Of a DNA stretch of 64,000 nt, positions 1,734 through 29,836 are shown in pieces. A program made the translations under genes and the position numbers. Source of the stretch: Thermoanaerobaculia bacterium. Its GTDB lineage: Bacteria > Acidobacteriota > Thermoanaerobaculia > Multivoradales > J023. The notes beneath the pieces are model-generated. The model was given only the letters and a program-made list of their open reading frames with translations. It was not told the DNA's origin and did not search any database. The stretch's first letter is position 1, and every line of letters begins with the position of its first letter. The stretch is taken from NCBI GenBank assembly GCA_030431255.1, contig JAUIJL010000005.1:29313-93312 (forward strand), given 5' to 3'.

Positions 1734-4700
1734 ATGCAAAGCAAACCGACCGCGGCAACGCCTCTTATTGCTCTTCTAACTTGTTTGACGGCAGTTATAT
1801 GCTGGCTATCCGGCACGACTTCACACGGCCAAGAGCTGATCGACATGGATCAGGATTTCGAAGGCCTCGAAATCACAGCTCTCGCCCACCACGCAGGCAT
1901 TTCCCTGACTCAGGGCCAGCACAACGGTCTACAAAGCGGCGACCTCAACAACGACGGTCAAACCGATCTGGTGATCGGTGCCGGCGGCCGCAACGAAGCG
2001 ACTGTGCTGATTGACGGTGAGGTTTTCATCAAGCTCGGTCCGTTGGCCCCTTGCGGCACGGTGGACCTCAGCGATCCGGCGGAATTCGACATCCATATCG
2101 TCGGCTCCGACCCGCAGGACGTGCTCGGCTGGACCAGCCTGGTCGCGGACATCACCGGTGACGGAATCGACGACCTGCTGGTCAGCGCGTTGCGCGCCGA
2201 CGGTCCTGCCAACGCCCGAGCCGATACCGGTGAGATCTACGCCTTCTTCGGCCCCCTCTCCCCGGGCACTCTCGACGTGAGCACCGACGCCGACTGGACC
2301 CTCTACGGCGGACAGGACAACGAACCGCTCGGGGCCGATATGGCCATTGGCGATCTCAACCACGACGGCCAGCCGGATTTGGTGGTTGGGGCTCCGGACA
2401 CGGCGAACGTCCATCCCGGCGAAGCCCATATTTTCTTCGGTCCCATCGCCGCCGGCTCCCATGACCTGGCATCCCAACCCGCCGACGCCTCCGTCGTCAG
2501 CGCAGACACCGGTGACCAGGTCGGTTATTCCCTCGGCATCGCCGATCTCAGCGGCGACGGACTCGACGATTTGGTGGTTGCAGCCACCGGAGCTCGGCTC
2601 ATTGCCCAGGGTGAAACCTACGTCTTCTTCGGACCCATCGCCGCCGCCGCGGCCCTCGATCGAAATGACGCCGATGTGATCGTGCACGGCACTCGCACCA
2701 TTCAGAGCTTCGGTCGCGGGCTCGACATCGGCGATCTCAACCACGACGGTCAAAGCGATCTCGCCATCGCTTCCAGCTATTTGGAAAATCCCGCCACGAC
2801 CGAAATCACGGGCGCGGCTTCCGTGCTATTCGGTCCTTTGAGCACCGGCACCACCATCGCCTGGGATCAAACGGATGTCGTCTTGTTTATGAGCGAGGTT
2901 GGGCAGGTCCACGACTTGACCGTGGGCGACGTCACCGGCGATGGCTTCGACGATCTCGCGATCGGCGCACCCACCAAAAATCCCGAGGGTCGCGGCACCG
3001 CGGGCGAGGTGGAGATCGCCTTCGGTCCTCTCGCTTCGGGTGTGTGGAACTTTGCCACGAGCCCGGCCGATCTACGCATCATCGGCAAGACCCAGAACGG
3101 CCAGCTCGGCCGGGGCATGACCATCGCCGACCTCACCGGAGACGGCGACTTGGACCTCACCATCTCCGCGTCTTTCCACGCCAATGTCCATGGCACCAAC
3201 GGTGAGGTCTACGTTTACGACGGCCCGGTCGGCTTCCCGATCGACGCCGATCCAGCGCCGGCTTGTGTCGCCTCCAGCCCGCTGACTCTCGCCGGCAGCA
3301 TCAGCTCCGGCCAATCGATCGACCAAGTCGAGGCCCTGGTCAACGGTAATGCCGTCGGCACGGTCTGCTTGGGATGCGGCATCGACCCCAGCTTCTCTTT
3401 TGACTTCCCCCTCGCCGCCTGTGACAACCTGATGCGCTTCCGAGCCGTCGACGACACCGGCCAAGTGGGCGTCGCCACCCGAAAGACTCGCCTGGACGCC
3501 GATGGGCCGGTCTTCGGCGATTGCAACGACATCGAGGTCGAGGTGGCGGAAGGCATCAACGGTGCCGGCGTCCAATTCAATCCGGATCCGGTGGACGCTT
3601 GCGACGGCAACCTGCCGAGCTCCTGCAGCCACGCTTCCGGCAGCTTCTTCCCCCTCGGCGTGACCCAGGTTTCCTGCGACAGCACCGACACCTGCGGCAA
3701 TCCATCGACCTGCGACTTCCGGGTGATCGTCGAAACCGAGACCTTCGACAATACGGAATGCCGGGAAGACGACTTCTCCCAGCCACCGAGCGCGATCTGG
3801 TCCCTCGACACCGTGGGCGACGCCTCCGCCTTGGAAGCCGGAGCGTCCGTCAGCGGCGGCGAGCTGCACCTCAAGGGCACGGGCACGTCTCTCTACGACG
3901 ATCCCCAGGATCACACCACGTTCTTGCACCAAACTGTGACCGGTGACTTCTTCGTCGAAACCGAGATCACCTCCATCCCCGTGGACCTCGGCGGCCAATA
4001 CCGCAAAGGTGGGGTGATGGTGCGCGCAGGTCTAGCGGACGACGCGCCCCGGGTGATGGTGCAATTGGTCCCCCACTTCCCCCAAGGCGCGGGCGACACC
4101 ATGGCGATTCAATTTCACTATCGCGATGCCCTCGGCCAGGCCTTCGAGCTGGGCAGCACGGTGCAGAACATCACCTTGCCGGTTCGGGTCGGCATGTCCC
4201 GCCGTGGTGACGACCTGACGGTCTACTTCGCACGCGACGGTCAGCCGTGGGTCCAACCCGCGGGCGGCTTGGGCAGCGGTCTGGTCAACCTGGATCTCGG
4301 ACCGGACGCCTTGGTGGGTCTCAACGTCACCTCCTACGACGACCAACAACCTTTCACCATGGGCTTCAACGAGGCGTCGATCTGCCAGCCGAATGACGTC
4401 GATCCAGATCCGGTCTCGGTCGGCTGTGACGACCAGGATCCCGTGGATGTGATCTACCTGATGGACCTATCGGGCAGCATGGCCCGCACTTTCGACGGCA
4501 CCTCCAAGCTGGAAGCGTCTCGCCAAGCGATTCACCGCTTGAACGACACCTTCAGCACCTTGACCGACGGCAGCCAAGCGGCTTTGATCACCTACTCCTT
4601 GGGGCAATTCGAGACCGATCCCGCCCAGGCGACCCAAGTGGTGAGCTCGTTCACCGACTTCGCTTCCGTCAGCACGGCAGTGGACGGCCTCAACTTCGGC

Positions 4701-6209
4701 GCGGTGCAGCCCCTGGACGCTTCGCCCACGGCTCTAGCGCTGGCGGCCGCGACCCAGCTCCTGCAAAGCGCCGGCAATCCGGCCCATCGGCAAGTCTTGA
4801 TTTGGTTCACCGACAACCTTCCGAACGTCGACGATCAGCTCAACGGCGGCTCGGTCTACCAGGAGTCGGAGGTGAGGGCACTGAGCATCCTCGACGGCGT
4901 TGGCGATTTCCTGCCCCGCGGCGAGGTCGCGTGGCTGGGCAACGCCAACATCTTGTCCGGCGGCACCATCGTCTTCGACGGTGAGGTGTTGGCGGACGCC
5001 ATGGCCGGCATCGAGAACCTGCTCGCCGGCTTCCCCACCACCCGCATCCTGAGCGCCGTGCCTCGGGACGACGGCTCGTCGAGCCCGGTGATCTCCGAGG
5101 AGCTGTTGGACTATGCGGCCCACCAGAGCGGCGGCGCGGTCTTCGGCGGCACGGGCTCCGACCAACTGATCGAGGCCATGTCCGACCTGCTGGCGGAGGC
5201 CTATTGCAACATCGAAGGGGGCGCCAGCGTCGGCGGCCGAATCTGGCGCGATCTCGATGCCGACGGCACCCAAGATAGCGGCGAAAACGGCGTCTACGGT
5301 GTCACGGTGGAGCTGCTCGACAACACCCAGACCGTGATTGCTTCCGCCGTCACCGGCACCTCGGGCACCTATCGCTTCATCGATATCCCGGCCGGTAGCT
5401 ACGACGTCCGGATCGATTCGGCGAGCCTGCCGTCGGAGCTGACCATCGCCACCTTCGATCCCGACGGTGTGGGCTCCGCGGACTCCTTCGCCGTGACCCT
5501 CGCCGCTTTTGACGCCATCACCGACGGGGACTTCGGTTACGGGGAGACCACCCCGAACACCCAACCGCTGACCGCCTGCGTCGACGACGACTTCAACGAC
5601 GGCGTTCTGCAAGCGGATTGGCGGTCGACCTACCTGGGCAACGCCGACCAGGGCACGGTGGACGAGTCCAATGGCTCGCTCAAGCTCTCCGGTGACGGCA
5701 CGACCCTCTTCGGCGCGTCCGACAACGGTCACTACTTGTACCGTCACGTCAACGGTGATTTCCGCGCCGAGGTCGACGTGGTCGACTTCCCGGTGGATCA
5801 AGGCGGCGCCTACCGCAAGGCCGGTCTGATGGTGCGCGACGGCTTCGGCAGCGCGGCTCCGCGGGTGATGGTGCAATTCGTTCCCCATTGGGCGGGCGGC
5901 AGTAGCACCGCTTTGCAATTCGGCTACCGCGGCACGGCCGGTGCGTCCGACGCGCTCTTGGCCACCAACGTGAACAACCTGCAGCTGCCGGTGCGCATCG
6001 CCATCGAGCGCCAGGGCAACCTATTCACCGTGGAATACTCCACCGACGGCGGCACCACGTGGATTCAGCCCACCGGCCAAGCCGGCGGCTCCATCAGCCT
6101 GAGCATGAGCCCGATTCTTTCCGTGGGTCTGGACGCGGTGTCCTACGACGCCGAGCTCGAGCTGACGGCTGAGCTGGACGATTGGAGCCTGTGCCCTCTG
6201 ACGCCCTGA
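1734..6209 (+). CDS. Large secreted multidomain adhesin-like protein. Domain order: signal peptide, FG-GAP/integrin-alpha beta-propeller repeats, HYR-like Cys-rich domain, ConA-like jelly-roll domain, VWA (MIDAS) domain, Cna-B/SdrD-B domain, second ConA-like domain.
   Basis: N-terminal signal peptide. Repeated DLNNDGQTDLVIGA / DITGDGIDDLLVSA / DLNHDGQPDLVVGAP FG-GAP units. VWA motif VIYLMDLSGSM. Cna-B-like GGRIWRDLDADGTQDSGENGVYGVTVELLD. Two paralogous segments (YRKGGVMVR...APRVMVQLVPH versus YRKAGLMVR...APRVMVQFVPH). Confidence 0.85.
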   Translation: MQSKPTAATPLIALLTCLTAVICWLSGTTSHGQELIDMDQDFEGLEITALAHHAGISLTQGQHNGLQSGDLNNDGQTDLVIGAGGRNEATVLIDGEVFIKLGPLAPCGTVDLSDPAEFDIHIVGSDPQDVLGWTSLVADITGDGIDDLLVSALRADGPANARADTGEIYAFFGPLSPGTLDVSTDADWTLYGGQDNEPLGADMAIGDLNHDGQPDLVVGAPDTANVHPGEAHIFFGPIAAGSHDLASQPADASVVSADTGDQVGYSLGIADLSGDGLDDLVVAATGARLIAQGETYVFFGPIAAAAALDRNDADVIVHGTRTIQSFGRGLDIGDLNHDGQSDLAIASSYLENPATTEITGAASVLFGPLSTGTTIAWDQTDVVLFMSEVGQVHDLTVGDVTGDGFDDLAIGAPTKNPEGRGTAGEVEIAFGPLASGVWNFATSPADLRIIGKTQNGQLGRGMTIADLTGDGDLDLTISASFHANVHGTNGEVYVYDGPVGFPIDADPAPACVASSPLTLAGSISSGQSIDQVEALVNGNAVGTVCLGCGIDPSFSFDFPLAACDNLMRFRAVDDTGQVGVATRKTRLDADGPVFGDCNDIEVEVAEGINGAGVQFNPDPVDACDGNLPSSCSHASGSFFPLGVTQVSCDSTDTCGNPSTCDFRVIVETETFDNTECREDDFSQPPSAIWSLDTVGDASALEAGASVSGGELHLKGTGTSLYDDPQDHTTFLHQTVTGDFFVETEITSIPVDLGGQYRKGGVMVRAGLADDAPRVMVQLVPHFPQGAGDTMAIQFHYRDALGQAFELGSTVQNITLPVRVGMSRRGDDLTVYFARDGQPWVQPAGGLGSGLVNLDLGPDALVGLNVTSYDDQQPFTMGFNEASICQPNDVDPDPVSVGCDDQDPVDVIYLMDLSGSMARTFDGTSKLEASRQAIHRLNDTFSTLTDGSQAALITYSLGQFETDPAQATQVVSSFTDFASVSTAVDGLNFGAVQPLDASPTALALAAATQLLQSAGNPAHRQVLIWFTDNLPNVDDQLNGGSVYQESEVRALSILDGVGDFLPRGEVAWLGNANILSGGTIVFDGEVLADAMAGIENLLAGFPTTRILSAVPRDDGSSSPVISEELLDYAAHQSGGAVFGGTGSDQLIEAMSDLLAEAYCNIEGGASVGGRIWRDLDADGTQDSGENGVYGVTVELLDNTQTVIASAVTGTSGTYRFIDIPAGSYDVRIDSASLPSELTIATFDPDGVGSADSFAVTLAAFDAITDGDFGYGETTPNTQPLTACVDDDFNDGVLQADWRSTYLGNADQGTVDESNGSLKLSGDGTTLFGASDNGHYLYRHVNGDFRAEVDVVDFPVDQGGAYRKAGLMVRDGFGSAAPRVMVQFVPHWAGGSSTALQFGYRGTAGASDALLATNVNNLQLPVRIAIERQGNLFTVEYSTDGGTTWIQPTGQAGGSISLSMSPILSVGLDAVSYDAELELTAELDDWSLCPLTP

Positions 6210-6804: not shown

Positions 6805-8016
6805 TCAGTGCAATGCAGTGTTTTGCGCGGTCCGAGAGAGGTACATCGAAAGACCGATCGGCGCCAGCAGAGGCGGCAACAACAACACTGCTTGCGCCAA
6901 AGCCGGGAGCAAATCCAAAGCACCGCTTTCGCTGAAAATAATCGCCGCAGCGCCCAAAACGACCCAAGGTAACGCCCCGCGATCCTCGGATCGTCGGCTC
7001 CACGCCAGGGCCGACGCGCCGCACAGCATCGGCACGAAAATTATCAAGCTATGGCTCCAGATGACCGGCATGCCCAACATGCCCAACAGACACAACAGCA
7101 CCAGGTCGAGCCGTCGGTCCTGCCGCCGGCGAAGTCGCCACCAAGCCACCGAGCAGATCGCGCCGGTGAAAAGCACCAAAATCCACAGGGGCGAGCACTC
7201 AACGCCGAGGGTCTGCAAGATTCGACCGATCGATACCGCGCGAATATCCGTCAATGAGCTCGGGCGAGCCGCGGGCATCTCAAATAAGTAGGGAGACGGC
7301 GCGTTCAGCACCAGACTCGCCACCCCGGCAGAGATCGACGTCTTCAGCCACGGACGATGACGGGCCACCCAACCTCCCACCCCGAGGACGGCCACCGCCG
7401 GAACGGCAAACGGTTTGATCAACACCGAGCAGGCCAAGAGACAACCCGCCACCACCGGCCGTCGTTCCATGATCTCCAAAGCCGTCCACAACAGCGCAAT
7501 GGCCATAAACGACACATTGGCGACCGCCACCCCCAGCTCGACCCCCGTCGACACCACCAGCAGCCCACCGACCAGGAACCAGACCTTTAGGGAATCGTTC
7601 CTGGAGGAATTGGCCCCCGTGCCACCGAATCGACGCCACCATCGCACCGCCCACCCCGCGATCACCAGCAGGGAGCAAAAGCTGAGCAGGCGCAGGAGAG
7701 CCCGGCTGCCTTCCATGCCGAGCCATCGGCTCGACCAGCTACCGAGATGGGCAAAGGCCGGCGGGTAAAGATAGCCGTCGACAGTGAAGGGAGAACGTCC
7801 CTGGGTAACCGCCTCGAAGGCCAGGAGATAAATCCCCTCATCCACCCGCGTCTCGGAATCCAACCAAGTGTCCCCGAAGCGCAAAAGCAAAAGCCCGGCG
7901 ACGATCAAAGGCCCGACTACAGCCCTCCACGCGCCCCATCTTTCGACACCGGAAGTGGCCGTCCGCTCGGATTCAGCTCCGCGAGATGTTGGTCTTTCGA
8001 TCGTGTTTCTCCCCAA
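6805..8016 (-). CDS. Polytopic integral membrane protein, GT-C-fold (DUF2029/PMT-ArnT-like) glycosyltransferase candidate
   Basis: About 10 hydrophobic helices. DEGIY motif (DE-x-x-Y) in the first predicted extracytoplasmic loop, as in GT39/GT83/GT87 enzymes. Exact start uncertain. Confidence 0.55.
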   Translation of the reverse strand: MGRNTIERPTSRGAESERTATSGVERWGAWRAVVGPLIVAGLLLLRFGDTWLDSETRVDEGIYLLAFEAVTQGRSPFTVDGYLYPPAFAHLGSWSSRWLGMEGSRALLRLLSFCSLLVIAGWAVRWWRRFGGTGANSSRNDSLKVWFLVGGLLVVSTGVELGVAVANVSFMAIALLWTALEIMERRPVVAGCLLACSVLIKPFAVPAVAVLGVGGWVARHRPWLKTSISAGVASLVLNAPSPYLFEMPAARPSSLTDIRAVSIGRILQTLGVECSPLWILVLFTGAICSVAWWRLRRRQDRRLDLVLLCLLGMLGMPVIWSHSLIIFVPMLCGASALAWSRRSEDRGALPWVVLGAAAIIFSESGALDLLPALAQAVLLLPPLLAPIGLSMYLSRTAQNTALH

Positions 8017-8163
8017 TGAGCCGCGATCATATCCCGGCTCCCAAAACCCGGCCGGTAGCGGCCCGGATCCAAGACCACAGGTTTCGATAGGATGGGGATC
8101 TGGGTCTTCCTACTGAAGTCTCAGATCTCTGCGTGCCGTGCTTCCACGGCCGATTTCGAGAGG

Positions 8164-8802
8164 ATGCCCATGTCGAATGAGCCCGACCTGCCCCACGACT
8201 CCGCGGACGACGCGATTTCGCCGGAAATCACCCGGCTGCTGCAGAGTTGGACCTCGGGTGATGCCCAAGCCGCGTCGACGCTACTGGAGAAGGTCTATCG
8301 GGATTTGCGCAAACAGGCCGCGAGCTATTTGCGCCGAGAGCGCTCCAACATCACCTACCAGCCGACGGCTCTGGTGAATGAGGTCTACATGAAGCTCAGT
8401 GAGCAGGACCGCATTCAATGGCAGAGCCGATCCCATTTCTTTGCAATCTCCGCCCAGCTCATGCGCCGGATCCTGGTGGATCATGCCCGTGCTCGCCACA
8501 GTCAAAAGCGGGGCGGAGATCAGGTCAAGGTGCCGTTCGAGCTGGCTTTGGAAAAAGCGGAGGTGCGGCCCAGCGAGCTGTTGGCCCTGCACGACGCGCT
8601 GAAAGAGCTGGCGGCCGTGGACCCCATGAAGGCCCAATTGGTGGAGCTCCGGTTTTTCGGTGGCCTGCAATTTCAAGAGATCGCCAAGGTGCTCGACGTA
8701 TCCTCTCCGACGGTCAATCGACATTGGCGGGTGGCGCGGGCATGGCTGTTCCGGCAGCTGAACGGCGAGGCGGGCTCCGAGACCGAAAATCCGCTTCCTT
8801 GA
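8164..8802 (+). CDS. ECF-type RNA polymerase sigma factor (sigma-70 family, TIGR02999-like group common in Acidobacteria/Planctomycetes/Myxococcota)
   Basis: LLQSWTSGDAQAASTLLEKVYRDLRKQAASYL...ALVNEVYMKL (region 2) and LVELRFFGGLQFQEIAKVLDVSSPTVNRHWRVARAWL (region 4 HTH). Start taken at Met25 of the ORF. Confidence 0.85.
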   Translation: MPMSNEPDLPHDSADDAISPEITRLLQSWTSGDAQAASTLLEKVYRDLRKQAASYLRRERSNITYQPTALVNEVYMKLSEQDRIQWQSRSHFFAISAQLMRRILVDHARARHSQKRGGDQVKVPFELALEKAEVRPSELLALHDALKELAAVDPMKAQLVELRFFGGLQFQEIAKVLDVSSPTVNRHWRVARAWLFRQLNGEAGSETENPLP

Positions 8803-8816
8803 GTCGGCTTCCGCAC

Positions 8817-8880
8817 AAAAAAATCCCGCCTTTCGGCGGGAGGAAAGGGACGGCGTTCGCCGTCTCGGAGCTTGTTTAAC
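8817..8880. terminator. Bidirectional terminator region between convergent ECF sigma and RND-OMF genes: hairpin cccgcctttcggcggg flanked by an A7/T7 run, and hairpin gacggcgttcgccgtc
   Basis: Inverted repeats read directly. On the minus strand the first hairpin is followed by TTTTTTT. Confidence 0.55.
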
Positions 8881-8903: not shown

Positions 8904-11900
8904 TCAGCTCTGTCCGCTGGGGGTCGCCACCGCCAAATCGTAGGCAATCCACGCTTTCAGCAGCTCCAGCTTGGCCAGGGAGCTCTCGGTCCGCTGGCGA
9001 CGAAGGGCCGCTTCGGCGACCAAGAGATCGTTGGTGGTCGAACGACCCGCCGAATTGCGCTCTTGCTCGACCCTGAGGGTTTCGCCGGCCAGCTCCGTGC
9101 CCCGGGCCCTGACCTCCACCGCCCTTCGAGCCACGGAAATCTGGGCCAAGGCATTTCGCACCTGAAGCTCAACCCCTCGGCGGAGCTCCACCAAATCGGC
9201 TCGCACCGCCGCTGCCTCGGCCTCGAAGGCCGCTCGTCGGGGAGCCCGTGTGCCTTTGGCAAAGGGCACCCAAGTGACGTTGACGGTTCCTTGGACCAGC
9301 TCCTCCGGGCGAAACGGATCGCCGTCGGACTGCTGTAGGCTGGCCACCGCTTCGAGCTTCGGCAGCCGTTCCGCCTTGACCGCCTTGGCCCGCAGCTCCA
9401 AGGCCCTGAGCTGAGCTTCCAAGGCCCGTAGATCATGCCTTGAGGCCAAGGCCGTGGAAATTGAATCTTGGAGGGAGGGCTCGAATTCGCGGTCGTGCTC
9501 GCCGTCCCATTTGGGCTCCGCCCCGCCATCGAGGCCGAGAGCCCGGCCGAGATCCGCCACCGCCACCTGCCGCTGCTCTGCCAAACGGCTTTGATCGAGC
9601 TCACCGGACTCCAGATCCAGCCGAACCTTCAGCACCTCGGCCTGCAAGATTCTTCCGGCTTCGACCCGCGCCTCCATCTCCTCCACCCGGGCCTTCAAGC
9701 TCTCAACAAAGGCTTGGGTCGCTTGGGCGGCCGCGTCGAGGGACAACACCGTCAGCCAAGCGTCCGCCGCTTCCGTCGCCAGCTCTTGACGCAGCCGCTG
9801 GGCTTGCAGACCACGGGCTTCGGCCACGGATTCCGCGGCCGGCGACTCGTAGAGCAGGTTTGAAGGATCGAAGATCGGTTGGCTCACCTGGAGCACCAAA
9901 GAAGTGCTGGTCCGATCACCGAGGGTAAATCCCCCGATGGGAGTTTCGAAATCGTAGTCACGATCTCGCCACACCCAATCTCCGACCACCGCCACAGAAG
10001 GAAGACGAGCGGATCGACGGCTCGCCACCGCGGTTTGCGCCGCGGCTTCCGCCCGCAGATCAGCGGCCTTCACCAAGCCTCGGAGGGCGGCCAGCTCCAT
10101 GGCTTCGGCGAGGGTCACGGCTCGCAAGGGCTCGTCCCGGCCGGTGGCAGGCTCGACGGAGCCATCGATATCGACGGCTTGCTCCGTTTCATCCCCATGG
10201 TTTGGCGAGCCCGTGGCCGCGGCCGCAGGATCGACCCACACCAAACCCGTCACAATCACCACGAAAGCGATCGAAGCCGCCGCCAGGGATCTGCGCCCCA
10301 TGCCCAAATTCTTCCAGCTCGGACGAACGAAGAAGAGCTTGTAGAGGGCCGGGATCACCAAGAGGGTGAGCACCGTCGAAGCCATCAACCCCGAGATCAT
10401 CGCCCAGGCCAAGGGCGGCCACAGGGTCGCGCCGGAAAACGCCAAAGGCGACAAACCGGCCACAGTGGTGAGCATGGTGAGCAGGATCGGACGCGCCCGG
10501 CGTTTCACCGCCTCGGTCAAGGCCTCATCGATATCGGCACCTTCTCGACGCCGGGTTTCGATCACATCCAACAGCACGATCGCGTTGTTCACCACGATGC
10601 CCACCAGGGAAATGACCCCGAGCATCGACATGAAACCGAAGGGTTGGTTCGAAAGGATCAGCCCGGGCACCACGCCGGTAGCCGCCAACGGCACCGTGGC
10701 CATGATGATCGCCATGCGCCGGAAGGAATTGAATTCCAACAGCAAAAAGAAGAGCAACAACAGCAGACCCAGTGGCATCTTCTGCAGAATCGCGGCGTTG
10801 GCTTTGCCCGACTCCTCCAGCTCGCCGCCGAGCTGCAAACGCACTCCCGCCGGCAGATCGAGCTCCGCCAGCTTCGGCTCGAGCTTTTGCGAGACCCGCT
10901 GCGCGGTGACCCCTTCCGCCAATTGGGCCTGGACCTTGACCACCCGATTTCGGTGCTTGTGGTGAACCGCCGCTGGGAGCCACTCCACCTCGAGGGATGC
11001 CACCTGCTCCAAGGGCACGGGCTGCCCGCCGGGCACGGCCACGTCGACGGTGGAGAGGTTATCGGCGAGGAATTTCTCCCCTTCCGACGACCGCACCTTG
11101 ATCGGAATCGGGTCCTCGCTGACCCGATATTGCCCGATCTCCATACCCAAGGTGCGACCGAGAAGGGCTTGGGCCACGTCCGTCCGCGCCAAGCCGTGAC
11201 GGGCGGCGGCCGCATCGTCGATCTCGAAACGCACCGCCGGCGCTCCCAGGCTGAGATCGTGGCGAACATCTCGGGTGCCTTCGATCGAGCGCAGGGCCGC
11301 CAACACCTCGTCGGCCACCCCTTCCATTTCTTCGAAGTCGTGACCGACCACCATGATCTCCACCGGCGCCTCAATGGGCGGACCTTGCTCCAAACGTCGT
11401 GCCACCACCGCCGCTTCGGGGACCTCCAACCGAACCCATTCCCGCACCCAATCGATCACCGGCTCCACGGACTCGAAGGCATCGGTTTCCGCCACCAACA
11501 TGGAGCGGTGGGGCGAATTGGGCCGAGACAGCAGGTTGTAATAGAACTTCGGGCCGTTGCGACCGACGAAGGTGCCCACCGACTCGACGTGGACATGTCG
11601 CATCAAGGCCGCTTCTAGCCGCTTGGCCACGCCGTCGGTGGTTTCGATGTGGGTGCCTTCGGGCATCTCCAGCTCGACGATCACGGTTTTTCGATCGGAA
11701 GCGGGAAAGAATTTCACCTCCACCCACCGGGCGCCGAAGACGGTCAGCACCAACAACAGAGCCGCGCCCATCAATACCCAGCCGGAGCGACGCACCGCGA
11801 GCGCGGCGATGCTTTCGGGCATCTTGGAAAATCGGCTCTCGCGGTTGGCTTTCGGTCGTGCCTTGAGCATCAGCTCCGAAAGCACGGGGGTCACCAAAAT

Positions 11901-13325
11901 GGCGAAGAGGTAGCTGACGGTGAGCGACAACATGATCATCACCGGAATCGTGCGGGTGAAATCAGACGTGTTGCCCTTCGCGATCAGCATCGGAACAAAG
12001 GCCGCCAGGGTAGTGCCGGTCGCCGTGCCCAGGGGCACGGCCAGCTCCTTGACCGACACCACCGCAGCTTCGTGCACGGGGATGCCTTGGTCGAGGCGAT
12101 ATTGGATGTTCTCCACCACCACGATGGCGTTGTCCACCAACATGCCGAGGGCGATCACCAGAGCGGCAATGGAAATTTGGTGCAGCACACCGCCACCGGC
12201 GGCGAAAATGCCGATCGAGCCGAAGGCCACCAACGGCACCACCAACGCCACCACCAAACCGAGCCGAAGGCCCATCGCAATGAAGAGGATGCCGGCGACG
12301 ATCAAGATGCCCAAGCGCAGAGAGCCGGTCAGCTCCTGCAAACGGCTCTTGACCAAGTCCGGTTGAAAGATCATTTCCTCGATCGACACCCCATCCAACC
12401 GTCCGGCCGCGGCCTCGACCGTCTCCCGGACCTGGTCGCCGAAACGAACCCGGTCAATGCGATCCTGGGGCACCACCGCCACGCCGATGGCCGGCTCCCC
12501 ATTCCAACGCATGATCTCTTGCTCGGGCTCGGCCGGTCCCCGTCGCACTTTGGCCAGCTCGCTCAACGGCACCGATGAGCCCGAAGGCAGCAGGATGGGT
12601 GTCTCCCGCAGCTCCTCCAGGGAACGCAGCTCCGTTTGGGGTCGTAGGTTGGCGGTTTTTTCACCCAAGTAGATCAAACCGCCCGGCACGATCCGGCTGC
12701 GCTGGGCCAGCTGCAAGCCGAGCGCGCGGGGGTTGAGACCCAAACGACGGGCCGTGGCGTCGTCGTATTCGATCGTGATCTGCTCACCGGGATCGGCGAC
12801 GAGCCTCACCTCTTTGACCCCGTCGAGGGAAAGTAAATCCCGCTTCAGGGTCTCGGCGGCGTGTAAAAGTGCCAACGGATCAGGGGATCCGACCAAGGCG
12901 TAAACGATGGCTTCTTGGGACACCAAGTCGTCGTCGAGCTCGGGATCGTAAACCCCGGAAGGGAATTCGCGCCGGGCCTCGTCGATGGCGTCTTCCACCT
13001 CGTCCCAAGCCGCGTCCGTGTCGTAGACCGTTTCCAACAGCTCCACGTGCTGGATGGCGACACCGGCGCGGGCGGTGGAATCCACGTAGTTGATGGTCGA
13101 CACCTCGGCGAGATGCTCTTCCAAGGGCTCGACCACCATGCGCTCGACGGTCAGCGCGTCCGCGCCGGGAAATACCGTCACGATCAAGCCGTCACGATGG
13201 GGAAATTGCGGGTCTTCCTCCCGCGGCATGGTCAGCCAGGAGCTGAATCCCGCCACCGCCAAGAGCAACGTCGTGGCAATCACCAGCCGACGACGTTGTA
13301 AGATGCCGTCCAACAGCTTCATCAC
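8904..13325 (-). CDS. RND efflux permease (AcrB/CzcA family, about 1030 aa) fused in-frame to a C-terminal TolC-like outer membrane factor domain (about 440 aa)
   Basis: N-terminal 12-TM RND architecture with two large periplasmic loops. After the last TM comes a signal-peptide-like segment (MGRRSLAAASIAFVVIVTGLVWV), then an OMF-like coiled-coil/beta-barrel repeat sequence (TolC-type duplicated repeats, rich in AEA/LRA heptads). The 1473-aa frame is uninterrupted in the ORF track. Confidence 0.8.
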   Translation of the reverse strand: MMKLLDGILQRRRLVIATTLLLAVAGFSSWLTMPREEDPQFPHRDGLIVTVFPGADALTVERMVVEPLEEHLAEVSTINYVDSTARAGVAIQHVELLETVYDTDAAWDEVEDAIDEARREFPSGVYDPELDDDLVSQEAIVYALVGSPDPLALLHAAETLKRDLLSLDGVKEVRLVADPGEQITIEYDDATARRLGLNPRALGLQLAQRSRIVPGGLIYLGEKTANLRPQTELRSLEELRETPILLPSGSSVPLSELAKVRRGPAEPEQEIMRWNGEPAIGVAVVPQDRIDRVRFGDQVRETVEAAAGRLDGVSIEEMIFQPDLVKSRLQELTGSLRLGILIVAGILFIAMGLRLGLVVALVVPLVAFGSIGIFAAGGGVLHQISIAALVIALGMLVDNAIVVVENIQYRLDQGIPVHEAAVVSVKELAVPLGTATGTTLAAFVPMLIAKGNTSDFTRTIPVMIMLSLTVSYLFAILVTPVLSELMLKARPKANRESRFSKMPESIAALAVRRSGWVLMGAALLLVLTVFGARWVEVKFFPASDRKTVIVELEMPEGTHIETTDGVAKRLEAALMRHVHVESVGTFVGRNGPKFYYNLLSRPNSPHRSMLVAETDAFESVEPVIDWVREWVRLEVPEAAVVARRLEQGPPIEAPVEIMVVGHDFEEMEGVADEVLAALRSIEGTRDVRHDLSLGAPAVRFEIDDAAAARHGLARTDVAQALLGRTLGMEIGQYRVSEDPIPIKVRSSEGEKFLADNLSTVDVAVPGGQPVPLEQVASLEVEWLPAAVHHKHRNRVVKVQAQLAEGVTAQRVSQKLEPKLAELDLPAGVRLQLGGELEESGKANAAILQKMPLGLLLLLFFLLLEFNSFRRMAIIMATVPLAATGVVPGLILSNQPFGFMSMLGVISLVGIVVNNAIVLLDVIETRRREGADIDEALTEAVKRRARPILLTMLTTVAGLSPLAFSGATLWPPLAWAMISGLMASTVLTLLVIPALYKLFFVRPSWKNLGMGRRSLAAASIAFVVIVTGLVWVDPAAAATGSPNHGDETEQAVDIDGSVEPATGRDEPLRAVTLAEAMELAALRGLVKAADLRAEAAAQTAVASRRSARLPSVAVVGDWVWRDRDYDFETPIGGFTLGDRTSTSLVLQVSQPIFDPSNLLYESPAAESVAEARGLQAQRLRQELATEAADAWLTVLSLDAAAQATQAFVESLKARVEEMEARVEAGRILQAEVLKVRLDLESGELDQSRLAEQRQVAVADLGRALGLDGGAEPKWDGEHDREFEPSLQDSISTALASRHDLRALEAQLRALELRAKAVKAERLPKLEAVASLQQSDGDPFRPEELVQGTVNVTWVPFAKGTRAPRRAAFEAEAAAVRADLVELRRGVELQVRNALAQISVARRAVEVRARGTELAGETLRVEQERNSAGRSTTNDLLVAEAALRRQRTESSLAKLELLKAWIAYDLAVATPSGQS

Positions 13326-14452
13326 CGATCCCCCTCGGTGGATCCCTCGACCGGTTCCACAGGCTCACCGTCGAGCAGACCTCGCTGCCCCCCTACGACC
13401 ACCCGATCGCCGGGGGACAGCTCCCCTTCGACCACCACGGAGTCGCCGATCAAGGCCCCCACCTCGAGCCGAACCTTTTCAACCCGATGGCCACCTTCGG
13501 CCGCAACGACTTTGAATAGGGCGGGTTGTCGCCCTCCGGGATTGATCACCGCTTCCACCGGCACCGTCATCGCTTGATCCGAGGTCAACGAAATCCTCAG
13601 CTCGGCGGTCGCGCCGACCACCAGACTCGGATCCGCAGCCAACCGTGCGACCACCGGGAAGAGCCTGCCGGCACCCGCGGCGGTCCGGCCCACGGAATCG
13701 ATGGTGGCGTCGAACGGCTTGGGCCCCTGATGGGGCAAGAACACAGCTGCGGAATCCCCTTCGGAGATCCGAGGCACGACGCTCTCGGGCACCTCGACCT
13801 CCACCTCCAGATCACCGTCGCCGGAGAGCACCAGGACCGGCCTGCCCGGCGACACAAATTCCCCGGGCTCAAAAAACACCTCGGTCACGGTGCCCTTGAA
13901 GGGGGCTTTGAGCCGAGTCTCGTCGCGCAATCGCTCCGCTTCCCGCAAACGGGCGCCGGCCGCGTCCTCGCCGGCCCGCAGGGCTTGCAAGCCGGCTTCC
14001 ACCTTTTCCAGCTCCTCCGCGGTCGCGGCCTTTGCGGACAAGAGCTTGCGAGCACGCTCAGCGTCCCGCTCTGCTTGGGCGCGGCGGGCCTGGAGCTCAG
14101 CCAAAGCCCCTTGAGCTCCGGCCACCGCATTCTCCACCTCTAGGCCGTCGAGCCGGGCGAGCACGGCGCCCTTCTCCACCACATCCCCGACCTCCACCGG
14201 GCGGGCGACGATGCGCCCCCCCAGCGAGAAGGCAAGGCGCGCTCGTTCGACCGCTTGGGTGACGCCGGAGAATCGCAAATCCCGCTGACTGGAAGCGGAA
14301 TCGACCCTGCCAATTTCTACCCGCTTGGTCGGCGCCTTACGGCTGTCCGAGCTCACCGCCGGCTCTGAAACTCCGGTCATGTAGACGGCGGCGATGAACG
14401 TGGTGAGACCCACCACGACGTTTCTATGTCTGTTGAGAATCGAGAGGATCAC
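13322..14452 (-). CDS. RND efflux membrane fusion protein (HlyD/AcrA-family periplasmic adaptor)
   Basis: N-terminal TM, biotin-lipoyl-like hairpin and long coiled-coil (LQARRAQAERDAERARKLL), beta-barrel and MP domains. Stop overlaps the RND start (ATGA). Confidence 0.85.
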   Translation of the reverse strand: MILSILNRHRNVVVGLTTFIAAVYMTGVSEPAVSSDSRKAPTKRVEIGRVDSASSQRDLRFSGVTQAVERARLAFSLGGRIVARPVEVGDVVEKGAVLARLDGLEVENAVAGAQGALAELQARRAQAERDAERARKLLSAKAATAEELEKVEAGLQALRAGEDAAGARLREAERLRDETRLKAPFKGTVTEVFFEPGEFVSPGRPVLVLSGDGDLEVEVEVPESVVPRISEGDSAAVFLPHQGPKPFDATIDSVGRTAAGAGRLFPVVARLAADPSLVVGATAELRISLTSDQAMTVPVEAVINPGGRQPALFKVVAAEGGHRVEKVRLEVGALIGDSVVVEGELSPGDRVVVGGQRGLLDGEPVEPVEGSTEGDR

Positions 14453-14599
14453 GATTTTTCTCCAATAAATCGGCCGACCTGACTATGAACTGGCCAACCG
14501 GTCAATATCGACAACAACATACCTCTACGCGGTGATTCATCCAGGGTTGCATCGAATCGAGAATTCAGGTCCGGCGAGGTTAGGTTTCGGTCTCAGGGA

Positions 14600-15289
14600 T
14601 CACTCGGTCTCATCCCTCGGAGCACGGACCCCTTCAAAGAAAATCTTCACCATATCCCGCAGATATCGCTCGTCCAAACTTGGGCCATCGATTTCGGAAT
14701 CGACCATCGAGAGAGTCAAACAGTGGCTTTGGAACCAAGAAAAGGGCAGCGCAATCAAGGTTTTGATAATGAAAAACGGCTCCAGATCTCGCCGAATCCG
14801 CCCTTCTTCTTGCGCTTCTTGAATCTTTCGGATGCCGATTTCGAAGAGCTGCTTCTCAGGATCCGCCGCGCATTGGCTGTCTTCCTCCTCCACAAAGCGC
14901 CAGCCCATGAATCGCACGGATTTGGGATCGTTTTGCAAGAACCGGAAATACGCGACCAAAGACTCTTCCAACAAGGTCTCAGTGGATTCGGATTGCTCCA
15001 AGAGCTGCATTTGAAGGTCGAAGTATTCTTTGAAGTGACGATCCTGAACCGCTTGCCAGAGCTCTTCTTTCGAGCCGAAATGGTGATGGATCAAGCTCTT
15101 GGTCACCTCGGCTCGCCGAGCCACCTGGCTGATCGAGGTGGCCGCCGGCCCATGGCAAGTGAAGAGATCCTCGGCCGCATCCAAGATAGCTTTGCGCGTG
15201 GCCTCTGGATCCCTCCGGCGCCGAAGATCCGCGGACTCTTCTTCCTCCGGTGACGCTTTGGGAGGGGTGTCGCTGAGATAAATGGCCAT
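14600..15289 (-). CDS. TetR/AcrR-family transcriptional repressor
   Basis: HTH: ATRKAILDAAEDLFTCHGPAATSISQVARRAEVTKSLIHHHFGSKEELWQAV. Directly upstream of the MFP-RND-OMF genes on the same strand. Confidence 0.85.
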   Translation of the reverse strand: MAIYLSDTPPKASPEEEESADLRRRRDPEATRKAILDAAEDLFTCHGPAATSISQVARRAEVTKSLIHHHFGSKEELWQAVQDRHFKEYFDLQMQLLEQSESTETLLEESLVAYFRFLQNDPKSVRFMGWRFVEEEDSQCAADPEKQLFEIGIRKIQEAQEEGRIRRDLEPFFIIKTLIALPFSWFQSHCLTLSMVDSEIDGPSLDERYLRDMVKIFFEGVRAPRDETE

Positions 15290-15325
15290 AGCGCTCGCTT
15301 TCTGGGCTTCTGAAGATTTCGGTCC

Positions 15326-15360
15326 GCGAACCGGTCGGCCTATTAACTGACCGGTCGGCC
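15326..15360. promoter_or_regulatory. Candidate TetR operator: two copies of (a/g)accggtcggcc, containing the self-palindrome gaccggtc, 20 bp apart in the tetR upstream region. Related ggccgacc/aaccggtc elements recur at 14460-14497 upstream of the MFP gene.
   Basis: Direct repeats and palindromes read in the sequence; function inferred from position only. Confidence 0.3.
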
Positions 15361-15477
15361 AATAATAATTGGTAAGGAATCTGAGGTCAAGCGGTGAACC
15401 AACCCACGGGCTTTGGTAGTCTGACCCTTGGACCGAAAGAGAGTCCAGTGAGCCGTCATTCGAATCGGAGGTGATGT

Positions 15478-17415
15478 ATGTGTGGGATTGTAGCGATGTT
15501 CTCCCAGGGAGGGACCCTACGGCGAGAACGTCTCGCGGCGGCCGTCTCCTCGATCGAGCACCGCGGCCCGGACGGTGAGGGTCTGTGGCTCTCGCCGGAT
15601 GAAAAGGTAGGGCTCGGGCACCGTCGGCTTTCGATCATCGATCTCGAAACCGGTGCGCAACCGATCTCCGACGACGATGGGCGGGTGATCGTCGTCAACG
15701 GAGAGCTCTATGACTTCGAGCGGATTCGAGAGCGCCTCCAGCAAGCGGGCCACCGATTCCGCACCGACTCCGATAGCGAAATTGCCTTACACCTTTTCGC
15801 CGAGCACGGCTCCGGATGTTTTCCACATCTGCGCGGAGAATTCGCTTTTGCCCTATTCGACCCCAACCTGAAAGTTCTTTTTGCGGCCCGCGACCGATTC
15901 GGCATCAAACCCCTTTTCTATGCCCAGCACGACGGAGTGCTTTACCTCGCTTCGGAGATCAAGGCCCTCTTCGCCGCCGGCGTGCCGGCGAGATGGGACC
16001 TCGAGTCCTATTGGGACCGAGGATTCCTGCTCCGAGATCGCACCCTCTATGCCGGGGTGCACCAAGTGCCGGCAGGATATGCTCTCATCGCCACGGAATA
16101 CGGCGTGCGGCTCGAACGGTATTGGGACTTCTCCTATCCTGCTGCCGAGGATTCGACCTTGGAGACCTCACGCCAAAGCGAGCAGGAGAGGGTGGCCGAG
16201 CTGCGCCGATTGTTGGATGAATCGGTGGGGCTGAGGCTGCGGGCGGATGTGCCTGTGGGAGTCTATCTCTCCGGAGGGTTGGACTCTTGCACCGTGCTCG
16301 GCTTGGCGGCACGGTTGCACAACGCCCCCGTCGATGCGTTCACCCTGTCGTTCGAGGACATTTCCAGCGGCAATCCGGTCTTCGACGAGGGGGACATCGC
16401 CCGCGAGATGGCCGAGAGCACCGGCTCCCACCTCCACCTCCTGAGGGTCAGCCAAAAAGATCTGGCAGACTCCTTCGCCGATGCCGTTCGACACGGCGAG
16501 ACCATCTGCATCAACGCCCATGGAGCGGCCAAATTCCTGCTCAGCCGGATGGTCCGGGATCACGGCTACAAGGTGGTCTTGACCGGCGAAGGCGCGGACG
16601 AGGTCTTCGGTGGTTATGCACCGTTCCGCCAAGACATGTTGCGGCACAACAACGAAGGTCAGGATCCGGACACCCTGCAACGTTTGCTCGCCATGTTGGA
16701 GGACACCAACGCCGTCAGCTCTTTGGTGATGGCCGAGGAAGATCCGGAGGCCGCGGGTTGGTTGCGTCGGGAGCTGGGATTCGAGCCTGCCCATCTGGCG
16801 GCCCTGCGGCCGTGGATGAGCCAGCTCTCGCGGCTTTGTCGGGACGGTTTCGGCGAGATGCACTACGAAACCATGATCGATCGCTGGCTCGTTCACCTCG
16901 GCAACACAGCCCATCTCGCCGCCATCGAGCCGGTCCACGCCTCCATGTACCTGTGGTCGAAAAGCATGTTGGTGAGCTACATCCTGGTCAATCTGGGGGA
17001 TCGCATGGAGATGGCCCACTCCATCGAGGGGCGGGTTCCCTTCCTCGACCACCACTTGGTGGATCGGGTCACCCAATGGCCCGTCCACACCAAGATTCGG
17101 GGCATTACCGAGAAGCACATCTTGCGGGAAGCCGTGCGCGATGTGCTGACGGACACGGTCTATCGTCGGCAAAAGCACCCCTTCACCTCGCCGCCTAGCA
17201 CCGCGGAAACCGACGGCGCCCTCTTCACCTTAGCCCAAGACACCCTGCGCAGCCGGCAGATGGCGGACCAGCCCTTTTACGATCCGGCCAAGGTGAGCCA
17301 CTTCCTCGACAAGCTCAAGGGCTTACCTCCCGGTCCCCGGCTCGGGGCCGACGCACTGGTGATGGAGATTCTCAGCCTGGCTACCCTCCAAGGCTGTTTT
17401 TCGCCCTCCGCGTGA
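15478..17415 (+). CDS. asnB: Asparagine synthetase (glutamine-hydrolysing), AsnB family
   Basis: N-terminal MCGI (class II amidotransferase catalytic Cys2). SGGLDS PP-loop motif. 645 aa. Confidence 0.9.
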   Translation: MCGIVAMFSQGGTLRRERLAAAVSSIEHRGPDGEGLWLSPDEKVGLGHRRLSIIDLETGAQPISDDDGRVIVVNGELYDFERIRERLQQAGHRFRTDSDSEIALHLFAEHGSGCFPHLRGEFAFALFDPNLKVLFAARDRFGIKPLFYAQHDGVLYLASEIKALFAAGVPARWDLESYWDRGFLLRDRTLYAGVHQVPAGYALIATEYGVRLERYWDFSYPAAEDSTLETSRQSEQERVAELRRLLDESVGLRLRADVPVGVYLSGGLDSCTVLGLAARLHNAPVDAFTLSFEDISSGNPVFDEGDIAREMAESTGSHLHLLRVSQKDLADSFADAVRHGETICINAHGAAKFLLSRMVRDHGYKVVLTGEGADEVFGGYAPFRQDMLRHNNEGQDPDTLQRLLAMLEDTNAVSSLVMAEEDPEAAGWLRRELGFEPAHLAALRPWMSQLSRLCRDGFGEMHYETMIDRWLVHLGNTAHLAAIEPVHASMYLWSKSMLVSYILVNLGDRMEMAHSIEGRVPFLDHHLVDRVTQWPVHTKIRGITEKHILREAVRDVLTDTVYRRQKHPFTSPPSTAETDGALFTLAQDTLRSRQMADQPFYDPAKVSHFLDKLKGLPPGPRLGADALVMEILSLATLQGCFSPSA

Positions 17416-29188: not shown

Positions 29189-29836
29189 TTACCGTCGCGA
29201 CGGGTACAGCCTCTTGACCACCTCGCGGAAGGGCTTCAAAGCAGTGGGGTCGTTGACACTCTGCTTGAAGACCACCTCACCTAGGGTGATTCTCACCACG
29301 TCGCCGTCCCAGAGCTCATCTCCGGGACGCAACAGAAAGCTCGTTCGTTCACTGGCGGACTTAACTTGTGCAACCGGCCCGTCATCCAAAATGAAAATGC
29401 CTTCGATCCGAAGCTCGGCGATCAACAAACCCGGAATGCCGTCCGGTCTCTCCCGCCGACCATCGTTCTTTCGTCGCTTTCTCAACAACGAGCGGAAAGG
29501 ATCTCGTCGGGCTCCGGGATCGTAGGTGAAGGCGTCCGGTGAGGACAGCACCTCTTCATCCATCGCCAGGAGGTCGTCCACAGCGCCGAAATCGATGGCT
29601 TCGCCATCCACAACCGCACCGTCGGAGTCACCGTCCTCTTCGTCCGAAATCTCCGCGTCTGTATCGTCTACGTCGACGAGCTCCGCATCCGAATCGTCAT
29701 CGGCAGCCGAGAAGTCGTCGTCTTGGGCCGCAGCCAACGGTACCCAAAACAGACATAGAAGCAGGAATGCGAAAACGGACGAAGCCACCCGGAAAGGGGC
29801 AAGCTCGACCGTCCGAGAAGGCAGATGGGTGCTCAC
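29189..29836 (-). CDS. pilP: Type IV pilus assembly lipoprotein PilP
   Basis: Position in the pilMNOPQ order. Signal peptide, acidic linker, C-terminal PilP beta-domain (DPFRSLL...). Confidence 0.7.
   Translation of the reverse strand: MSTHLPSRTVELAPFRVASSVFAFLLLCLFWVPLAAAQDDDFSAADDDSDAELVDVDDTDAEISDEEDGDSDGAVVDGEAIDFGAVDDLLAMDEEVLSSPDAFTYDPGARRDPFRSLLRKRRKNDGRRERPDGIPGLLIAELRIEGIFILDDGPVAQVKSASERTSFLLRPGDELWDGDVVRITLGEVVFKQSVNDPTALKPFREVVKRLYPSRR

Follow-up and report, generated by a model that had tools for sequence, protein, structure and literature searches.

The 64,000-nucleotide stretch of DNA studied here (the window; positions 29,313 to 93,312 of contig JAUIJL010000005.1, from the Thermoanaerobaculia bacterium assembly GCA_030431255.1) carries on its minus strand, at 8904..13325, a gene that specifies two components of a tripartite efflux pump in one polypeptide. 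A complete resistance-nodulation-division (RND) inner-membrane permease runs, without a stop codon, into a complete TolC-like outer-membrane factor (OMF), and the same arrangement is kept in relatives down to 34% identity of the RND half. The RND::OMF fusion in this gene is real. We think that its product is probably a polyprotein precursor, in which an internal signal peptide would export the OMF half and signal peptidase I would free it, since the geometry of assembled pumps and the layout of unfused relatives both point to halves that become separated.

Two complete modules in one reading frame

The open reading frame (ORF) listing of the window gives a single unbroken ORF of 1473 amino acids (aa), counted from a GTG; the NCBI gene model (P0001, 100% identical) has 1472 aa and begins with the next codon, the ATG at 13322. 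A preliminary description of this DNA, made from its letters alone, had reported a complete permease that continues, with no intervening stop codon, into an OMF sequence; this reading holds. Translation shows no stop and no frame change where the modules meet, with the DNA inspected over 10050-10450 and in frame throughout 10210-10340, so that the hidden stop considered in that description is absent from a continuous sequence.

The RND half matches the Pfam family ACR_tran (PF00873) over residues 9-998, corresponding to model positions 6-1020 of 1021, at E 5e-147 and 491.6 bits against a cut-off of 28. This is a full-length match to a family model of ~1020 positions with 12 transmembrane (TM) helices and two large periplasmic loops. 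We place the permease module at residues 1-995 (10341..13325, minus strand), ending with TM12 and the conserved sequence VIPALY; the permease is thus complete, as had been proposed, but close to 1000 aa long rather than 1030. Among solved structures, the closest chain is 6vej, which we take to be TriC of TriABC (E 1e-135, query residues 4-1000 against chain residues 9-1011), followed by an end-to-end alignment to MexK (E 5e-125), while AcrB reaches just 1e-45. The half also falls below the NCBIfam cut-offs for HAE1 (TIGR00915, 250 bits vs 940), for HME CusA/CzcA (TIGR00914, 254 bits vs 701) and for RND_permease_2 (396 bits vs 1250). With these cut-offs missed and MexK and TriC nearest, the RND half would belong to a divergent MexK/TriC-like clade, and the earlier label 'AcrB/CzcA-type' stands at the level of the RND superfamily only.

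The OMF half contains two stretches of Pfam OEP (PF02321), reaching residue 1463 (E 6e-42, 144 bits, cut-off 22). It scores 78 bits against NCBIfam TIGR01844, below the cut-off of 225, and a phmmer search of PDB sequences at E 1e-3 with the OMF part returned no matches. We modelled residues 949-1473 with AlphaFold2, using 42 aligned family members as input, and obtained a mean pLDDT of 86.5, with values above 90 from residue 1068 on. The model is a complete OMF protomer, in which helices H1 and H2, two strands, the long H3, H4, the equatorial H5, H6, two further strands, the long H7 and H8 follow in order. A Foldseek comparison pairs it with TolC (1ek9; E 3e-18, target-normalised TM-score 0.78), and OprN, CmeC, VceC and CusC score near TolC. 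The OMF module, with its eight helices, four beta-strands and TolC fold, accordingly spans residues 1068-1473 (8907..10124, minus strand).

The fusion is widely conserved. We searched a collection of 5.8 billion proteins and considered the best 120 matches, almost all of which are 1430-1520 aa long, contain both PF00873 and PF02321 and are 47-88% identical to the window protein; a small number of entries are shorter, and for the most part these are marked as partial or lie on short contigs. Because nearly all of these relatives carry both domains at this length, the fusion goes beyond chance or error. It was found in more than 110 protein clusters within this identity range, and the fused matches come from metagenome-assembled genomes labelled Acidobacteriota, Thermoanaerobaculia, Holophagales, 'Sulfomarinibacteraceae', Desulfobacterales, Desulfobacter and Desulfobulbus, to which a genome scan added Myxococcota, among the matches listed. 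Several fused matches sit on contigs of 1-9 Mb, including ones of 5.2 and 9.3 Mb. An exhaustive HMMER search with the OMF module alone recovered ~30 more fused representatives of 50%-identity clusters, whose RND halves are 34-52% identical to that of the window. A cassette of a TetR-family regulator (TetR_N and TetR_C_21), a membrane fusion protein (MFP) and the fusion recurs in the same form in homologous loci at 55% identity (L081) and 49% identity (L082, Desulfobacter), so that the order can be followed down to 49-55%. The fused proteins carry annotations such as 'efflux RND transporter permease subunit', 'TolC family protein' and 'AcrB/outer membrane protein TolC'. The other ground for refutation named in the preliminary description, a fusion kept in no relative, is thereby removed as well.

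Two loci from the genome scan deserve separate mention. In the isolate Desulfoluna limicola (L061), what had seemed to be a fused gene is actually two separate ORFs in the RND region. A fused homologue of 40% identity, a 1435-aa ORF on contig CAZZLC010000021.1 (L014), comes from a metagenome-assembled genome labelled uncultured Enterobacteriaceae bacterium; one would not expect such a label in this family, and wrong binning or labelling may account for it.

The junction and its counterparts in unfused relatives

In the window protein, the VIPALY that ends at residue 995 is followed by a basic cytoplasmic loop, KLFFVRPSWKNLGMGRR (residues 996-1012, 10290..10340), which includes Met1009 (10299..10301); by a hydrophobic segment, SLAAASIAFVVIVTGLVWV (residues 1013-1031, 10233..10289); by the stretch D-P-A-A-A-A-T (residues 1032-1038, 10212..10232); by an acidic spacer (residues 1039-1067, 10125..10211); and by LRAVTLAEAM, the start of H1, all on the minus strand. 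The loop, the segment and the alanine-rich stretch resemble the n-region, the core and the c-region of a signal peptide, the last with candidate signal peptidase I sites at AAA/A and AAA/T (a slash marks the predicted cut), and the hydrophobic segment could equally be described as a 13th TM helix. The junction peptide MGRRSLAAASIAFVVIVTGLVWV (residues 1009-1031, 10233..10301), which had been called signal-peptide-like, deserves that name, with its basic loop, hydrophobic core and AxA-type end. In the AlphaFold2 model, TM12 occupies residues 970-999, a junction helix of moderate confidence occupies residues 1012-1029, and residues 1030-1067 are disordered, with pLDDT below 50 over most of the acidic spacer. 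The 19 residues of the segment have a mean Kyte-Doolittle value of 2.32, in line with the protein's true TM helices, and residues 1043-1082, 40 residues that overlap the spacer, have a net charge of -7. A lipobox of the OprM/NodT type was looked for and not found: the window protein has no Cys within or after the hydrophobic segment (…GLVWVDPAAAATGS…), and the aligned relatives described below have an AxA with E, Q or A after it instead.

Junction statistics were taken from 113 aligned full-length fused relatives. The median net charge of the basic loop is +4, and a hydrophobic segment comparable to that of the window protein is present in every one of them, as an uncharged stretch with a median of 20 residues (range 14-34). 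The same layout is seen in 21 of 27 more distant fused representatives; for the remaining six, the extracted sequence windows missed the junction. Under a home-made and permissive rule for cleavage sites (small residues at -3 and -1), the window protein and 107 of the 113 relatives have a candidate site where the hydrophobic stretch ends. At that site AxA occurs in 77 relatives, compared with 52 +/- 5 after local shuffling (highest value among 200 shuffles, 64), and the position next to the site is mostly taken by E, Q or A; when the sequences are anchored instead on the first charged residue after the hydrophobic stretch, the pattern is A-[E/R]-A. We regard this enrichment as supporting, not decisive, for a signal peptidase I site. 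No other conserved junction motif was seen in the aligned relatives. The spacer, measured between the hydrophobic stretch and the invariant Leu of H1, is conserved neither in length nor in sequence: its median is 10 residues within a family range of 0-60, and it is no longer than 10 residues in 58 of the 113, 20 in 92 and 30 in 107, reaching 50 or more in three. At 40 residues, the spacer of the window protein is the fourth longest.

Two of the distant fused proteins, P0221 and P0224, have a high content of K, I and N and probably derive from low-GC organisms. Their junctions end in PLSA/QT and SSFA/QI, with Gln at the predicted +1 position, which recalls the 'Q-rule' that is said to apply to signal peptidase I substrates in Bacteroidetes (PMC5837995).

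Unfused members of the family show what the junction looks like when the two genes are separate. The search with the OMF module also recovered many standalone OMFs of 405-470 aa that interleave with the fused ones by similarity, and these carry ordinary N-terminal signal peptides ending 0-10 residues before the same H1 motif, as in P0136 (MRRTLILLALLTPLAARA/EELDLEAAM), P0139 and P0144. In two Nannocystales loci (L002 and L021), the genes are ordered MFP-RND-OMF, are 51% identical over both modules and are unfused; coverage in a tblastn search had suggested that both were fused, and the ORFs show a stop with an ATGA overlap. In L002 the TGA of the RND gene overlaps the ATG of the OMF gene (cccaATGAtc), the overlap is preceded by a caggagg Shine-Dalgarno motif, and the OMF starts with MIAALLALVLVAPPSPSQA/RPDD. 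In L084 the RND protein ends in VVPALYTLAFRDAPPASAA and its stop codon is followed by a 24-nt spacer containing GAGGAG and then by the gene for P0136. A further locus, L083 (332..3674), has the order TetR-MFP-OMF-RND with 4-nt ATGA overlaps and a weak TetR_C_21 match, and the N-terminus of its RND protein closely resembles those of the window protein and other fused members; this order, together with the fused-like N-terminus, indicates that fusion, fission and rearrangement have all taken place within one pump family. The closest unfused RND inspected, among the matches listed, is that of Halomonas socia (L005), where TetR- and MFP-sized ORFs precede the RND gene, a pattern of gene sizes that would fit TetR-MFP-RND; an OMF-sized ORF 3′ of the RND gene was looked for by ORF size, and none was present. 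Loci of Marinobacter, Halopseudomonas and Thiocapsa have identities like that of Halomonas (42-49%), again among the matches listed.

Judging from these arrangements, the simplest origin of the fusion would be a merging of frames in a translationally coupled RND-OMF pair, by which the signal peptide of the OMF was made internal. Met1009, which opens the sequence M-G-R-R-S, is then probably a relic of the start codon of the once-separate OMF gene. A rough neighbour-joining tree of OMF modules requires at least 16 changes of the fused state, compared with 18.5 when the labels are shuffled; this scatter reflects either recurrent fusion and fission or a tree that is too poorly resolved, and we draw no conclusion from it.

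Pump geometry and the fate of the fused chain

Whether the two halves could work as one chain is a matter of distances. Published dimensions (PMC8277102) put the length of an OMF at 14 nm, made up of a 4-nm barrel and a 10-nm alpha-barrel, with H1 and H5 forming an equatorial belt at mid-height of the alpha-barrel. The RND protein reaches 7 nm above the inner membrane, and ~6 nm of the 33-nm complex consists of MFP density only, the RND and OMF components having no contact (PMC4754349). Adding the height of the RND protein, the MFP-only gap and the mid-height of the alpha-barrel (7 + 6 + 5) places H1 ~18 nm from the inner membrane, a distance that needs at least ~50 fully extended residues. 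We would expect such an MFP-bridged assembly for the window pump if the hairpin of its MFP is normal, and the ~78 residues that separate the two lipoyl half-motifs of this protein suggest a normal coiled-coil hairpin. Since the spacer has at most 30 residues in 95% of the family and 40 in the window protein, where ~50 are called for, the RND and OMF halves must, on these dimensions, become physically separated.

The order of elements in the junction suggests how. The 12 TM helices of the RND half would insert co-translationally and leave its C-terminus in the cytoplasm. The basic loop, the ~19-residue core and the AxA, read as the former Sec signal peptide of the OMF, would then insert with the N-terminal side in and the C-terminal side out and start Sec-dependent translocation of the ~440-residue OMF half into the periplasm. 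Signal peptidase I would cut past the AxA, here at AAA/A or AAA/T (residues ~1035-1038), and the freed, soluble OMF precursor would trimerise and enter the outer membrane, leaving the RND protein with a ~17-residue cytoplasmic loop and a 13th TM helix. A tripartite pump of the usual kind would then form from free OMF, MFP and RND protein. The topology of this scheme works: a hydrophobic segment after TM12 inserts N-in/C-out, as the positive-inside rule predicts from a cytoplasmic RND C-terminus, a basic loop and an acidic spacer, and the fusion is topologically feasible in just the way that had been suggested, with a 13th helix re-exporting the chain. The AxA motif lies where standalone relatives have their signal peptidase site, which makes signal peptidase I the obvious candidate for the cut. 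The preliminary description had offered a 13th TM helix, cleavage of the linker by signal peptidase and translation from the internal ATG as separate options; the first two are favoured together, as export by the segment followed by cleavage, while the internal ATG lacks support as a general mechanism.

Several observations weigh against cleavage of a polyprotein. The 40-residue spacer of the window protein is among the longest, and its gene has an in-frame ATG at codon 1009 with a weak GGAAG 9 nt upstream, so that some OMF could be made separately in this organism. AxA is also found in TM1 and TM7, which are not cleaved, in 50 and 40 of the 113 relatives, which shows how permissive the -3/-1 rule is. 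The hydrophobic segments of fused proteins slightly exceed the signal peptides of standalone OMFs in length and hydropathy (20 vs 17 residues; 2.8 vs 2.5), which would fit a stable anchor too, and the 113 relatives share ancestry, so that these counts are not independent events. We therefore dropped both the -3/-1 rule and hydrophobic length as means of telling signal peptides from anchors, and the case rests on the geometry and on the standalone relatives.

The same evidence bears on the other ways in which two working proteins might arise from this gene. If translation began internally at Met1009, a normal OMF precursor would be produced and the read-through fusion would be a minor or discarded product. 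The window gene and the relatives nearest to it (P0002, P0003, P0006 and P0007) do have a Met exactly at the start of the signal peptide (M-G-R-R-S), the GGAAG stands 9 nt before it in the window gene, and in unfused relatives the OMF begins at the corresponding position, behind a Shine-Dalgarno motif. However, GGAAG resembles the Shine-Dalgarno consensus poorly, just 23 of the 113 fused relatives have a Met in the basic loop, with Met1009 itself kept in the nearest ones only, and no Shine-Dalgarno-like motif precedes an in-frame ATG, GTG or TTG in the loops of L014, L081 and L082. Internal initiation would also leave the family-wide loss of the stop unexplained, and ribosomes translating the RND region would still read through. 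We consider it an unlikely account of the gene, and not a feature of the family; in the clade of the window protein, an internal start could add to the cleavage route without replacing it. The geometry demands separation of some kind without naming signal peptidase I, so a different protease, or a cut elsewhere, such as one in the cytoplasmic loop after which the OMF keeps or separately loses its signal peptide, would serve as well. Set against the AxA-type c-region as the sole conserved motif seen at the junction, and against a layout that matches the signal peptidase I signal peptides of standalone relatives, this seems to us quite doubtful.

A permanent tether is also conceivable, with the hydrophobic segment as a 13th TM helix and a single uncleaved chain anchored in both membranes. 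Its N-in/C-out topology after TM12 is feasible, the segment equals true TM helices in hydrophobicity and is slightly longer than standalone signal peptides, and the acidic, disordered 40-residue spacer of the window protein would span ~14 nm if fully extended. Yet H1 of an assembled OMF lies ~18 nm away, and the spacers of most members fall far short of this, so that on this geometry a permanent tether is excluded for most of the family; a conserved function cannot hang on a link that most members cannot form, and a tether explains neither the unconserved spacer nor the enrichment of AxA. As an account of the family we hold it to be highly improbable. There is an equally slim chance that the window protein and the few others with spacers of 40-60 residues remain uncut, which would require a pump more compact than the MFP-bridged geometry, or, in a milder form, that they are cleaved and helix 13 becomes part of the RND trimer, for example as an AcrZ-like modulator. 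Finally, an indel of 1-2 nt at an ATGA overlap like that of L002 would yield just such a fusion from two normal genes, whether as an error of assembly or sequencing or as a pseudogene. The recurrence of the fusion in more than 110 independent protein clusters from varied samples and sources, and on contigs of 5.2 and 9.3 Mb, together with the good conservation of both halves, makes the chance of this negligible. Cleavage of a polyprotein by signal peptidase I therefore remains the reading that we favour.

The operon, its neighbourhood and known pumps

The fused gene stands at the end of a cassette on the minus strand, as the preliminary description had it. The first gene encodes a TetR-family regulator of 229 aa (14600..15289; Pfam TetR_N and TetR_C_21), and the second a periplasmic adaptor of the MFP family of 376 aa with an N-terminal hydrophobic anchor (13322..14452; Pfam HlyD_3 and HlyD_D23), which scores 195 bits against NCBIfam RND_mfp (TIGR01730, cut-off 94.9). 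The TGA of the MFP gene overlaps the ATG of the RND::OMF gene as TGATG (at 13322). A sigma-70-like consensus match, TTGACC-17-TATTAT (15362..15390), lies 5′ of the TetR gene and is the probable start of the operon, although such a match is weak (one found vs 0.9 expected by chance), and a hairpin resembling an intrinsic terminator (8824..8841; 7 bp, six of them GC, followed by a T-run), ~60 nt 3′ of the stop codon, is its probable end. With a promoter-like site before TetR and a terminator-like hairpin after the fused stop, the fused gene would be the last of a three-gene TetR-MFP-RND::OMF operon. Over 14500..15500, G+C content is clearly reduced, at 0.51-0.56 in the TetR gene and the DNA 5′ of it, compared with 0.62-0.67 in the flanking genes of the operon.

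A gene for an ECF sigma factor (8092..8802, plus strand; Sigma70_ECF, E 7e-56) runs towards the end of the pump operon from the opposite strand, with the hairpin at 8824..8841 between them. The distant relative L081 likewise has an ECF sigma gene just 3′ of its fused gene, which may be a coincidence or a conserved neighbourhood. Farther along, a 403-aa ORF (6805..8016, minus strand) has no Pfam matches at E 1e-3, and a 1491-aa ORF (1734..6209, plus strand) with five FG-GAP repeats and HYR, VWA, SdrD_B/CarboxypepD_reg and DUF1349 domains looks, from its domain content, like a large secreted or surface adhesin-like protein unrelated to the pump.

The pump presumably works like other tripartite RND exporters, and the nearest characterised relatives of its RND half export drugs and biocides. 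These include the closest solved relatives of the permease, MexK and TriC, which belong to the MexJK and TriABC pumps of Pseudomonas aeruginosa. The operons of MexJK and TriABC are not known to contain an OMF gene and borrow OprM or OpmH, whereas the window pump encodes a dedicated OMF inside the RND polypeptide. As in AcrAB-TolC, the cassette supplies an RND protein, an MFP and an OMF of TolC fold that, like TolC, has no lipobox; unlike TolC, which is encoded by a separate gene and shared by several pumps, this OMF is very divergent in sequence and is encoded together with one RND protein. The unfused members of the family (L002, L021, L084 and L083) have OMF signal peptides laid out like the fused junction and keep a stop and a separate start, either as an ATGA overlap or with a Shine-Dalgarno spacer, where the window gene has merged the frames.

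The nearest parallel known to us is FbcH of Bradyrhizobium japonicum, which, in work by Thony-Meyer and colleagues from about 1989-91, was reportedly found to be a cytochrome b-c1 polyprotein that is processed post-translationally into two subunits. FbcH likewise joins a multi-TM inner-membrane protein to a partner exported through an internal signal sequence; it differs in belonging to the respiratory bc1 complex and in that the released part stays at the inner membrane, whereas the OMF of the window gene must reach the outer membrane. A natural fusion of two adjacent genes of RND-superfamily machines is described for SecDF of Thermus thermophilus (PMC8277102). Unlike the halves discussed here, both halves of SecDF are inner-membrane proteins that form one 12-TM unit and stay joined, with no change of compartment and no cleavage. 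A description of a natural RND-OMF fusion was not found in full-text literature searches, or by keyword in the first 300,000 characters of a major 2021 Chem Rev review of tripartite pumps, a coverage that leaves out most subscription journals and TCDB.

The component families (RND, OMF/TolC, MFP and TetR) are known and the sequences are public; what is unusual is the covalent encoding of an inner-membrane and an outer-membrane component with a probable internal signal peptide between them. A conserved natural RND::OMF fusion lies outside the textbook picture of these pumps. If the polyprotein model is true, an outer-membrane protein would be exported through an internal signal peptide downstream of a 12-TM protein, the output of RND and OMF would be fixed at 1:1, giving the pump a dedicated exit duct in place of a shared TolC, and there would be RND pumps with a built-in 13th helix. 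Proteins of 1450 aa now annotated as an 'RND permease' or as 'TolC family' would, on the same condition, be precursors of two components. The family also offers a natural construct for studying the coupling of OMF export, RND insertion and pump assembly.

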